Assembly: GCA_963741205.1 (NCBI GenBank)
Contig: CAVUHW010000020.1
Coordinates: forward strand, 293,744-357,743
Origin: Nitrospirota bacterium
Lineage (GTDB): Bacteria > Nitrospirota > UBA9217
Length of the DNA stretch: 64,000 nt
Reading direction: 5' to 3'
Shown in pieces: positions 45,786 through 47,641 of this stretch (within the stretch, counting starts at the first letter, position 1; each line of letters starts with the position of its first letter). Below the pieces are notes generated by a model. That model was not told where the DNA came from and searched no databases. It saw only the letters and a list, made by a program, of their open reading frames with translations. The translations under genes and the position numbers were made by a program.

Positions 45786-45915
45786 CTATCGGTCTCAGAA
45801 ATCATGGTGAGGAACACAGGGAGAACATCGCGGTCCCTTCTCGACAATGACAAGTGCGTCACATGAAGGAAAAATGGAAGAAGAGAGTCAATTGCGCGGC
45901 TACGCCTCTCTCTTA

Positions 45916-46743
45916 TCAGGCGGCTTTCTTCCGCGCTCTAAAAAGGGCGCCTCCCGTAGAGGGAGACGTACGGAAACCGGTCATGCCGCTGAACAGTATA
46001 TCGCCAAAGCCCGCCCTCCGGAGCATCAGGAGATGGTCCCCGACCGGGACCGTGCCGCCGATTCATTGCGACCACGCTTCGGCGCTGCCAGCCGTGCCCG
46101 CGGGCAGTTCCTGCTCCAGCACCACATCGGCGTAACCAAGCCTGCCTCCCGGCTTCAGCACCCGGTTGATCTCCCGGAACAAGGTCTCTTTATCCGGAGA
46201 GAGATTAATCACGCCGTTCGAGATGACCACATCAAAGATGTTGTCCTCGAACGGCAGGCTCTCCGACGCCACCTGCCGCACTTCGGCATTCGCAATGCCT
46301 GCCTTCTGAAGGTTCTCGCGCGCCCGCACCACCATGGCCTCGGTCAGATCGACGCCGTGCACCATGCCCCCGGGACCGGTCAGCCTCGCCGCGATATACA
46401 GGTCGAAGCCCGCGCCGCATCCGACATCGAGAATGACCGATCCGGGCTCAATCGGGAACAGGGAAAAGGGATTGCCCACCCCGCAAAAGGATTCGAGCAA
46501 ACCGGGATGGGCGGCGTCAACGAGCGCGGGATCATAGCCGAGCGCGCGTGCGCCGTCTTCGCCCGTGGGATAGGCAAACTTCCCTGAGGCCGAGATCGCC
46601 ACCTCGGCATATTTGCTCCGTACTGCGCTTCTGATCTCTTCCGGCTGTGGTCCCTCTTGCCGGACTCCCGCCTCGCTGCACCCCCCGGTGCCGCTCAACG
46701 GCGCTCAGCGTGGTCCGTTCAAATGCTTCTGCAGGTTTTCCAT
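45916..46743 (-). CDS. ArsM-like SAM methyltransferase, candidate selenoprotein (U13, U227)
   Basis: FCGVGNP, LDVGCGAG, SNGVINL; in-frame TGA at 46705-46707 and 46063-46065 with the frame open beyond both; SD GAGGTG before ATG 46743. Confidence 0.8.
46035..46051 (-). promoter_or_regulatory. bacterial SECIS-like hairpin
   Basis: 11 nt after TGA: GGTCCC-GGTCG-GGGACC. Confidence 0.75.
46675..46694 (-). promoter_or_regulatory. second SECIS-like hairpin
   Basis: GC[G]GCACC-GGGG-GGTGC[A]GC; loop 18 nt after the first TGA. Confidence 0.45.
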
Positions 46744-46858
46744 GGGTCACCTCGCGATACAAAGCGGACAGGGGGCCATTTCTCATCGGCCGGAAGCCCA
46801 CATCCTCTTTTGCCATTTTACCACAACATTTCAGAGATATTTACGCGCCGATTCGCGT

Positions 46859-47641
46859 TTACTCGTGGGGAAAGAGTCGATCGCGGCCGGCGCTCACGCG
46901 CTCGTACTCGCGGTGACCGCACGCGTCCCATTCAAGCCGTGTCAGTAGTGCGTTAAACTCGGAATCGAGAGGCGCCTCGATACGGACCGCCCTCCCCGTA
47001 TGCGGGTGAATGAACTCGATCTCGCAGGCATGCAACAGCATACGCCGGCACTGGAACTGTGTCCGGAAGAAGTCGTTCTGTTTCCCGTCACCGTAAGTCG
47101 TGTCGCCGATGATCGGGTGGTAGATGTGTTTCATATGCCGCCGTATCTGGTGGTTGCGGCCGGTAAGGGGGGACGCCTTGATAAAGGAAAATCGCGCGCT
47201 CGTGTAGCGACCCACCGGATACGGCAACTCGGCGGTCGCGAGCCTGACATACTCAGTCCTGGCTTCCTGAGCTGGTTTGTCCGGGTCAACACGCTGATCG
47301 GTCCTTTTGTCCCTGCGTTCCTTTAACGAATGGTCGATGAGCTCCGTCTCTTTCGTCCAGCCCCGCACGACGGCGAGATAGGACTTCAAGATGGTCCCGC
47401 TGGAGAACAGCCCGGTCATGTCGCGGGCGCTGTCCTTGTCCAGGGCAAACAGCAACACGCCCGAGGCGGATTTGTCGAGCCGGTGCAGGAGGTAAACCCA
47501 GCGGCCCAACTGGTCCCGGACGAGTTGCATGGCATAGTCGGTCTCGTGCCGGTCGATGGCGCTGCGGTGGACGAGAAGGCCCGCCGGCTTGTCCACCGCC
47601 ACCAGGTGATCATCCTGATACAGTATGGATAGCGATCTCAC
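46859..47641 (-). CDS. truC: tRNA pseudouridine(65) synthase (RluA family)
   Basis: KPAGLLVHRS, HRLDKSASG, TGRNHQIRRHMKHI. Confidence 0.85.
   Translation of the reverse strand: MRSLSILYQDDHLVAVDKPAGLLVHRSAIDRHETDYAMQLVRDQLGRWVYLLHRLDKSASGVLLFALDKDSARDMTGLFSSGTILKSYLAVVRGWTKETELIDHSLKERRDKRTDQRVDPDKPAQEARTEYVRLATAELPYPVGRYTSARFSFIKASPLTGRNHQIRRHMKHIYHPIIGDTTYGDGKQNDFFRTQFQCRRMLLHACEIEFIHPHTGRAVRIEAPLDSEFNALLTRLEWDACGHREYERVSAGRDRLFPHE

Follow-up and report, generated by a model that had tools for sequence, protein, structure and literature searches.

The arsenic ligands of canonical ArsM are Cys174 and Cys224, while Cys44 and Cys72 give electrons through a disulfide cascade that is reset by thioredoxin (PMC6138428). 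A selenocysteine (Sec)-containing arsenite S-adenosylmethyltransferase (NF008823/PRK11873, motif UxxG, one Sec) is listed as a known prokaryotic selenoprotein in the table of a review (PMC13188914, citing Fomenko et al. 2007), and Sec-containing ArsM also appears in the Global Ocean Sampling (GOS) selenoproteome table (PMC2398784) and in PMC9312934. The same review attributes to Haft & Tolstoy 2025 the families NF047649 (methyltransferase/UXPK-star double selenoprotein), NF041536 (ArsM/DUF2284, UU) and NF041537 (ArsM/AhpD, UU), as well as double- and triple-Sec ArsM-like fusions (PMC13188914). The review table further lists MduS, a methyltransferase-domain selenoprotein with a CxxU motif and two Sec residues (PMC13188914). 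In this study, we analysed a stretch of 64,000 nucleotides (the window) from the metagenome-assembled genome (MAG) of a Nitrospirota bacterium (contig CAVUHW010000020.1, positions 293,744 to 357,743), and focused on a minus-strand gene with two in-frame UGA codons. This gene very probably encodes a stand-alone ArsM-fold methyltransferase of 275 amino acids (aa), with Sec at positions 13 and 227 inserted by means of two hairpins, and with an N-terminal arm that may supply a ligand or redox pair.

Results

The reading frame and its two in-frame UGA codons

The frame opens at ATG 46743-46741 and runs on the minus strand through 275 sense codons (46743..45916). Two TGA triplets stand in frame within it, as codon 13 (46707-46705) and codon 227 (46065-46063), and the terminal TGA (45918-45916) is directly followed by TAA 45915-45913, making a tandem stop. 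A Shine-Dalgarno-like GAGGTG (46753-46748) lies 4 nucleotides (nt) 5' of the ATG, and the orthologs have purine-rich motifs at the same place. The first-pass annotation of this DNA had proposed a double selenoprotein on the basis of an open reading frame (ORF) track stopping at AWSQ, a Shine-Dalgarno-led ATG at 46743 and a frame of 275 codons, all of which we found as described. The ORF list made under translation table 11 contained only 46698..46063 for this gene (TTG start, 211 aa, ending in AWSQ). TGA was the commonest true stop in the window, ending 16 of the 31 ORFs of at least 250 codons, which indicates the standard code and no code change. The main features of the gene are as follows.

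45916..46743, minus strand: coding sequence of a 275-aa ArsM-like S-adenosylmethionine (SAM) methyltransferase selenoprotein as we read it, based on the frame, PF13847, NCBIfam, the AlphaFold2 (AF2) model and Foldseek.
46748..46753, minus strand: Shine-Dalgarno-like GAGGTG upstream of the ATG, with similar motifs in orthologs.
46705..46707, minus strand: first UGA, read as Sec13, in frame in 17/17 family orthologs and present in 54/80 loci.
46063..46065, minus strand: second UGA, read as Sec227, at the CmArsM Cys224 position in the motif U-I-G-G; TGA in 80/80 loci and Cys in distant homologs.

Conservation of both UGA codons in related genomes

We sampled 60 other genomes of the phylum, 36 of them in the host's family and 24 in other families. 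The results showed an ortholog in 16 of the 60 (57-83% identity), all within the host's family, and both TGA codons were in frame in every one of them, that is, in 16 of the 36 other family genomes. The 24 other-family genomes had only Cys-type ArsM, with at most 44% identity. A cross-species scan of one genome per prokaryotic species then gave 80 loci, every one of which has the core TGA and Gly in place of Cys174. The N-terminal TGA was carried by 54 of these loci, which belong to Nitrospirota and Desulfobacterota-type MAGs. Among the other 26, 11 were fused to AhpD, one had a long C-terminal extension and 14 were plain, the last including two cut by contig ends and one with Ser at the position of U1, the first (N-terminal) Sec. 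In the armless forms, the start is an ATG located 12 codons ahead of the core helix. In a quick IQ-TREE tree, 54 of 55 arm rows fell in one clade of 55 (Shimodaira-Hasegawa-like approximate likelihood ratio test, SH-aLRT, 91), apart from the AhpD-fused clade (98). Judged from this comparison of sequences, the gene is a genuine double selenoprotein, in agreement with the proposal in the first-pass annotation.

Some of these genomes also hold unusual copies. One locus (L043, G001:C1:578120-578815) is a degenerate copy with a TAA in the leader, loss of the +9 Cys and a truncated C-terminus, and is likely a pseudogene; extra partial copies of the gene also occur in genomes G001 and G031. In two related genomes (L040 1469-1756 and L042 2293-2583, both minus strand), a small thioredoxin-like ORF with its own Shine-Dalgarno sequence and its own in-frame TGA runs stop-free and in frame into the arm TGA. 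Only the L040 ORF matched Thioredoxin_3, and weakly (18.7 bits against a cut-off of 24.8). These ORFs are either part of a triple-Sec fusion or an upstream gene that stops at the arm UGA.

Sec227 at the catalytic cysteine position

The core TGA was kept in 80 of 80 loci. In the alignment to solved CmArsM chains, U227 fell on the Cys of 'GECLGG' (Cys224 in CmArsM chain numbering), so that this catalytic feature is present as Sec and not as Cys, at the position that had been named for it. The distant homologs L044-L056, P0126 and P0151 and the ArsM chains in the Protein Data Bank (PDB) have Cys at the aligned site, which gives the expected Sec/Cys pairing. TGA-227 is therefore best read as Sec at the ArsM/AS3MT catalytic cysteine position.

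The predicted hairpin downstream of this codon was present, and its location is given below.

46035..46051, minus strand: selenocysteine insertion sequence (SECIS) hairpin 2, GGUCCC-GGUCG-GGGACC, starting 11 nt after the UGA, with six pairs, three of them with compensatory changes.

The 11-nt distance was kept in 44 of 52 sequences, and one of the three covarying pairs of the 6-bp stem was GC in 22 sequences, AU in 22 and GU in 8. Hairpin 2 alone folded no better than shuffled sequences (z +0.58; 146 of 200 shuffles folded as well), so its support comes from comparison and not from energy. We then followed synonymous divergence (pS) along the gene in a sliding window over 14 orthologs, a check that is independent of the hairpin registers. 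The value just after U227 was 0.20-0.23 against a median of 0.69, the lowest in the gene; just after U13 it was 0.41-0.45, and the four lowest of the 58 windows were those just after the two TGA codons. A scan of 45800-46900 against Rfam at E up to 10 gave chance hits only (a microRNA and a long non-coding RNA family) and no SECIS family. The hairpin presumably resembles the fdhF SECIS of E. coli, a likeness that the first-pass annotation had pointed out; no Rfam family matched either hairpin.

Sec13 and the N-terminal arm

The arm and its hairpin comprise the following features.

46663..46743, minus strand: N-terminal arm, residues 1-27 (leader, U13, PLSGTGG and C22), defined by low model confidence, consensus and partner Cys.
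46678..46680, minus strand: Cys22, the partner at U+9; Cys occurs at +9 in 31 of 51 arm genes.
46668..46701, minus strand: SECIS-like hairpin 1, marked by z -3.08, by pairing and covariation in two registers and by low synonymous divergence.
46691-46687 and 46682-46678, minus strand: the two sides of the apical stem of hairpin 1, with the loop GGGG at 46686-46683.

We counted starts, linkers, partner Cys and consensus residues in 51 non-redundant arm genes. The results showed an ATG 13 residues before the TGA in 36 of 51 (range 9-22), and a linker of 19-48 residues, always in frame, from U1 to the first core helix. Between the first TGA and the core there was no ATG, GTG or TTG in 20 of the 51 arm genes and in 7 of 17 family orthologs. 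The leader length is thus nearly fixed across two phyla despite weak sequence conservation, and this may mean that SECIS-dependent decoding needs a certain distance from initiation.

After the Sec, the arm consensus reads U-P-P-x-G-G-x-G-G-C-R, with Pro at U+1 and U+2 in 31/51 and 42/51. A partner Cys near U1 was found in 47 of 51 arms, only downstream in 32, only upstream in 15 and on both sides in none. The downstream Cys lay mostly at +9, and the upstream ones lay at -1 to -7, outside the hairpin. In two close relatives of the window gene (L065 and L066), the Cys has moved from +9 to -4. Such a choice of one side or the other speaks for a Sec/Cys pair with a function, and against a constraint at the RNA level alone, although the relatedness of the sequences makes these counts interdependent.

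The G-loop hairpin that had been noted after the first TGA was also present (GCACC-GGGG-GGUGC; minimum free energy -26.1, z -3.08, with 2 of 200 shuffles folding as well). In the Nitrospirota-type register (31 sequences) 85.3% of cells were paired, and in a register shifted by 3 nt (12 sequences) 93.1% were paired, compared with 10-58% in slid controls. Compensatory changes occurred in 6 of 7 pairs of the 31-sequence register and in 4 of 6 pairs of the 12-sequence register, and the covariation score was reached by none of 500 shuffles. In single-sequence folding, z was weak for both hairpins (mean -0.71 and -1.25, with 11 and 15 of 52 below -1.64), so folding z-scores do not discriminate here.

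The first-pass annotation had considered U13 the weaker of the two calls. Our results contradict this, because the start spacing, the absence of alternative starts, the covarying hairpin, the suppressed synonymous change and the partner-Cys pattern all bear on the first codon; we read U13 as Sec, and not as the lesser call of the two sites. Among homologs, the expectation of Cys or TGA held at the U227 site, where both occur; at the U13 site only TGA was found among the loci, apart from one Ser, and no Cys. In contigs of three other runs, which come from three studies, the first TGA is covered and has no alternative base, and the second TGA is covered in those runs only by short, relative-like contig pieces; neither TGG nor TGC was seen at either site. 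The locus had shares of at most 0.18 in the runs that contain it, and no RNA run was among those listed.

Family, fold and active-site residues

The read-through protein matched PF13847, a class I SAM methyltransferase family, with 116.1 bits (cut-off 27). Its best NCBIfam matches, at 260-282 bits, were three ArsM-type selenoprotein models, all of them below their cut-offs: NF041537 (282.2 bits, cut-off 510), NF047649 (276.6, cut-off 460) and NF041536 (259.8, cut-off 575). These matches span the core only (profile positions 11-251), and the profiles begin after the arm. The arsenite methyltransferase model NF008823 gave 200.9 bits, under its cut-off of 263. Five divergent arm forms behaved in the same way, with 139-213 bits for NF008823, every NCBIfam cut-off missed and matches that start past the arm.

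The AF2 model, built on 52 sequences, had a predicted local distance difference test (pLDDT) score of 90.8, with residues 1-27 below 50 and predicted to be disordered. In a Foldseek search of the PDB, ranks 1-13 were all ArsM/AS3MT, the best being 6cx6_A (E 2.8e-18, query TM-score 0.69). Alignment to the solved CmArsM chains (4kw7/4fr0) equated C87 with Cys72, G177 with Cys174 and U227 with Cys224. The core features besides Sec227 are listed below.

46483..46485, minus strand: Cys87 in CGVGNP, equivalent to CmArsM Cys72 in the alignment to 4kw7/4fr0 and invariant in 52/52 sequences.
46405..46437, minus strand: SAM-binding motif ILDVGCGAGFD, residues 103-113, from sequence, PF13847 and alignment.
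46213..46215, minus strand: Gly177 in ISNGV, at the CmArsM Cys174 position in the alignment; Gly in 80/80 loci.

C87 aligned with the Cys of 'FYGCG', and G177 with the Cys of 'ISNCV', so the arsenic-binding Cys174 is absent. The CGVGNP motif and the replacement of the SNC cysteine by Gly (SNGV) had both been seen before. An equivalent of Cys44 is also absent, as residues 50-86, between the first helix and C87, contain no Cys; U13 and C22 come before the first helix and do not correspond to Cys44 in position. The ratio of nonsynonymous to synonymous divergence (pN/pS) in the core was 0.31. Every member of the Sec clade has Gly at the position of Cys174, which makes plausible the rewired chemistry that the first-pass annotation had suggested. 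A soft metalloid, namely As(III) or a Se, Te or Sb species, is the most likely substrate.

Sec machinery of the host

The host assembly is 84% complete with 4.94% contamination. We found selD (G000:C14:97717-98643, L001; 352 bits) with one in-frame TGA, so the host SelD is probably itself a selenoprotein. The selB gene (372 bits) is adjacent to selA, and two tRNA-Sec genes with anticodon TCA are located on contigs C45 and C30 (L014 1497-1595 and L015 1498-1592). Either a true duplication or the presence of a second organism within the bin could account for the two copies. The selA gene gave 531 bits and passed its cut-off, with an apparent 1-nt frameshift near codon 370. The selD, selB and tRNA-Sec genes likewise pass their cut-offs, and the machinery looked for on the basis of the first-pass annotation appears to be present, with a reservation for selA. 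In detail, selA (G000:C26:85156-86524; L004 1501-2905) is split between two frames, and the first frame runs on without a stop across the spacer into selB. In the four closest relatives searched, all of which carry the double-TGA gene, selA was uninterrupted (4/4). The frameshift is a probable assembly error and remains a caveat.

Counter-evidence and alternative explanations

Besides the selA frameshift, several results weigh against our reading of the gene. For the arm, the leader before U13 is poorly conserved (nonsynonymous divergence, pN, 0.51), and no consensus structure in a single register emerged when RNAalifold was applied to the region after U1 in all 52 sequences. The two registers of hairpin 1 were assigned by eye, and their analysis omits nine of the 52 sequences (L065, L073, L075, L087, L088, L090, L102, L113 and L117). 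The amino-acid conservation of the arm overlaps hairpin 1, and part of it may be RNA constraint. No ortholog with Cys for Sec at U13 was found in the database proteins, library representatives or loci inspected. One locus (L063, positions 70-110), on a contig labelled Geobacter sp. and 76% identical to Nitrospirota genes, has TCG (Ser) at the first-TGA position; its upstream sequence is unrelated, and the gene lies at the contig start. In all 11 full-length database calls inspected, W stands at both sites, probably a code-4 calling artefact. A whole-protein profile run against 1.84 billion representatives had none of its top 150 matches starting before profile position 13, and the seven inspected lacked the arm. 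An arm-only profile found nothing at E up to 10 among longer proteins, which for so short a motif is weak evidence. For the enzyme, the NF008823 score below cut-off and the absent Cys174 mean that arsenite may not be the substrate. No ars operon or conserved neighbour was found around the gene, the best cluster occurring in 5 of 52 loci, so operon context gives no functional clue.

U13 could also be a real Sec without a catalytic role, which we consider improbable. The early UGA would then serve as a selenium checkpoint: without Sec-tRNA, translation would stop after 12 residues and spare the cell a useless truncated enzyme of 226 residues, and the conservation of the arm would be the footprint of the SECIS RNA. 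The fixed short distance from the start, the poorly conserved leader peptide, the predicted disorder of the arm and the lack of a Cys ortholog of U13 among the sequences inspected all fit this explanation, as does the fact that the conserved G-G-x-G-x-C codons make up the hairpin stem. However, RNA alone would hardly keep one partner Cys in nearly every arm, either upstream and outside the hairpin or downstream, and never both. The Pro-Pro at U+1/U+2 lies in the spacer and not in the stem, and the second Sec of the sister families sits in C-terminal modules, which are unable to act as an early checkpoint.

It is very unlikely that the stretch from ATG to TGA is a separate, possibly regulatory leader ORF of 12 codons, with the enzyme starting past the first TGA (for example at TTG 46698) as a single-Sec ArsM. 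The window gene does have a TTG three codons after the TGA, gene callers produce such calls (proteins of 186-211 aa), and the NCBIfam profiles start past the arm. However, this TTG lies inside the hairpin and has no Shine-Dalgarno sequence, and many arm genes and family orthologs offer no start codon at all in the stretch that separates the TGA from the core. Linkers of very different length all preserve the frame, a covarying hairpin stands at SECIS distance, and the armless forms start instead at their own ATG before the core helix.

A pseudogene, TGA codons from assembly errors or a reassignment of TGA (Trp/Gly) in the lineage, to which the incomplete MAG with its selA indel and the W-translated database calls might point, has almost no probability left and is effectively refuted by the comparative data, namely the same two TGA codons in dozens of independent assemblies, the agreement of the contigs from three other runs at the first TGA, the constrained core, the use of TGA as the stop of 16/31 long window ORFs, and the presence of Sec machinery and SECIS hairpins.

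Other observations

The promoter/terminator scan gave no minus-strand promoter. Terminator-like hairpins inside the coding sequence were taken as chance. One of them, with a T run, lies at 45948-45968 (minus strand), within the last 20 codons and the conserved RTSPxTxGALFRA region, and we read it as chance or coding constraint. Close orthologs of the window gene likewise end in TGA. The TGA-TAA tandem may be a back-up stop that guards against read-through in a Sec-decoding cell.

Public calls for the arm subfamily (P0017-P0058 and others) are either fragments of about 186 aa ending in AWSQ or full-length proteins that have Trp for each of the two TGA codons and come from contigs of about 1 kb, the latter kind probably made under code 4.

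Discussion

Our results lead to the following model. Translation would start at ATG 46743, and SelB with Sec-tRNA(Sec) would be recruited by a hairpin about 11 nt downstream of each UGA, until translation ends at the TGA-TAA tandem. In the product, U227 would replace the metalloid-binding catalytic Cys224, with C87 in the place of Cys72 and Gly in the place of the second arsenic ligand, Cys174. Because Cys72 is retained while Cys174 has been lost and Cys224 has become Sec, we propose the arm as the missing ligand and/or the resolving redox pair. The disordered, Gly/Pro-rich N-terminal arm, with U13 paired with C22, may swing into the active site. The third ligand that is missing there would come from the Sec/Cys pair, and/or the pair would provide the reducing equivalents for which the disulfide cascade of ArsM relies on Cys44-Cys72. 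A selenenylsulfide or diselenide of the arm with U227 or C87 could form and then be reduced by thioredoxin. The sister subfamilies seem to do the same job by a C-terminal Sec module (UXPK tail, AhpD domain or DUF2284 domain).

A more general idea can be put forward only tentatively. The Sec-type ArsM-like core might be a selenium-based platform that always needs a second, mobile Sec, supplied interchangeably by the N-terminal U/C arm (as in this gene and in 54 or more species-level genomes), the C-terminal UXPK tail, the AhpD domain or the DUF2284 domain; we think it somewhat less likely to hold than to fail. If it held, the arm would relay to the active site by a diselenide or selenenylsulfide, and the true substrate may be another soft metalloid or a selenium species and not arsenite. 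The arm form would then be an undescribed and widespread double selenoprotein, with a start-to-Sec distance among the shortest known.

The core Sec of ArsM is not new, having been known since 2007, and double-Sec ArsM-like proteins have been known since 2025. A Sec on an N-terminal arm, with a SECIS to itself, is a widespread variant and apparently an undescribed one. In the parts of the literature that our search covered, which did not include Haft & Tolstoy 2025 itself, we found no ArsM-like protein described with an N-terminal Sec, and the main texts of deep-Sep (PMC12013277) and BSepDB (PMC13326102) contain neither 'methyltransferase' nor 'arsenite'. The real 275-aa product is invisible in databases because gene calls are mostly fragmentary or Trp-substituted; it passes no NCBIfam cut-off. 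With one arsenic ligand lost, the other present as Sec and a Sec/Cys pair added on a flexible arm, the protein is a natural experiment in selenium-for-sulfur catalysis. Its hosts are anaerobic sediment and soil bacteria (Nitrospirota and Desulfobacterota) in arsenic and selenium cycling. As this short gene holds two SECIS elements, one only about 13 codons past the start, it also offers a compact system for the study of Sec insertion near initiation.

Comparison with known systems

Mammalian thioredoxin reductase carries a mobile C-terminal Sec arm with the sequence GCUG. On our reading, that arm and the one described here would work alike, each carrying at a flexible terminus a Sec/Cys pair by which electrons pass into or out of a buried active site. 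The two differ in that thioredoxin reductase has an unrelated fold and its arm at the opposite terminus, and we claim no homology.

Compared with MduS, as defined in the review table alone, the present protein lacks the CxxU motif, its Sec contexts being GPRU and WSQU. With the canonical four-cysteine ArsM/AS3MT enzymes (CmArsM 4fr0/4kw7/6cx6 and human AS3MT 8xt7) it shares the fold (TM-score 0.55-0.69), the SAM motif and the equivalents of Cys72 and Cys224 (C87 and U227). At 24-29% identity, it differs from them by Gly for Cys174, the lack of Cys44, Sec for Cys224 and an extra Sec/Cys arm before the first helix.

The closest systems are those that already contain Sec. The known Sec-containing ArsM, so far as the sources consulted describe it, has the same fold, the same Sec position (U-I-G-G at the Cys224 equivalent) and the same type of SECIS directly downstream. 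According to the review table it has one Sec, whereas in this protein and its relatives at 54/80 loci an N-terminal arm adds another Sec that has a SECIS of its own. The NF047649, NF041536 and NF041537 families resemble this protein in having one Sec in the UxxG motif of the core and another beyond the core, and the AhpD-fused loci also have Gly at the Cys174 position. In these families, however, the second Sec is located in a C-terminal tail or domain, whereas this protein ends 48 residues after U227 without such a module and carries its second Sec at the N-terminus.

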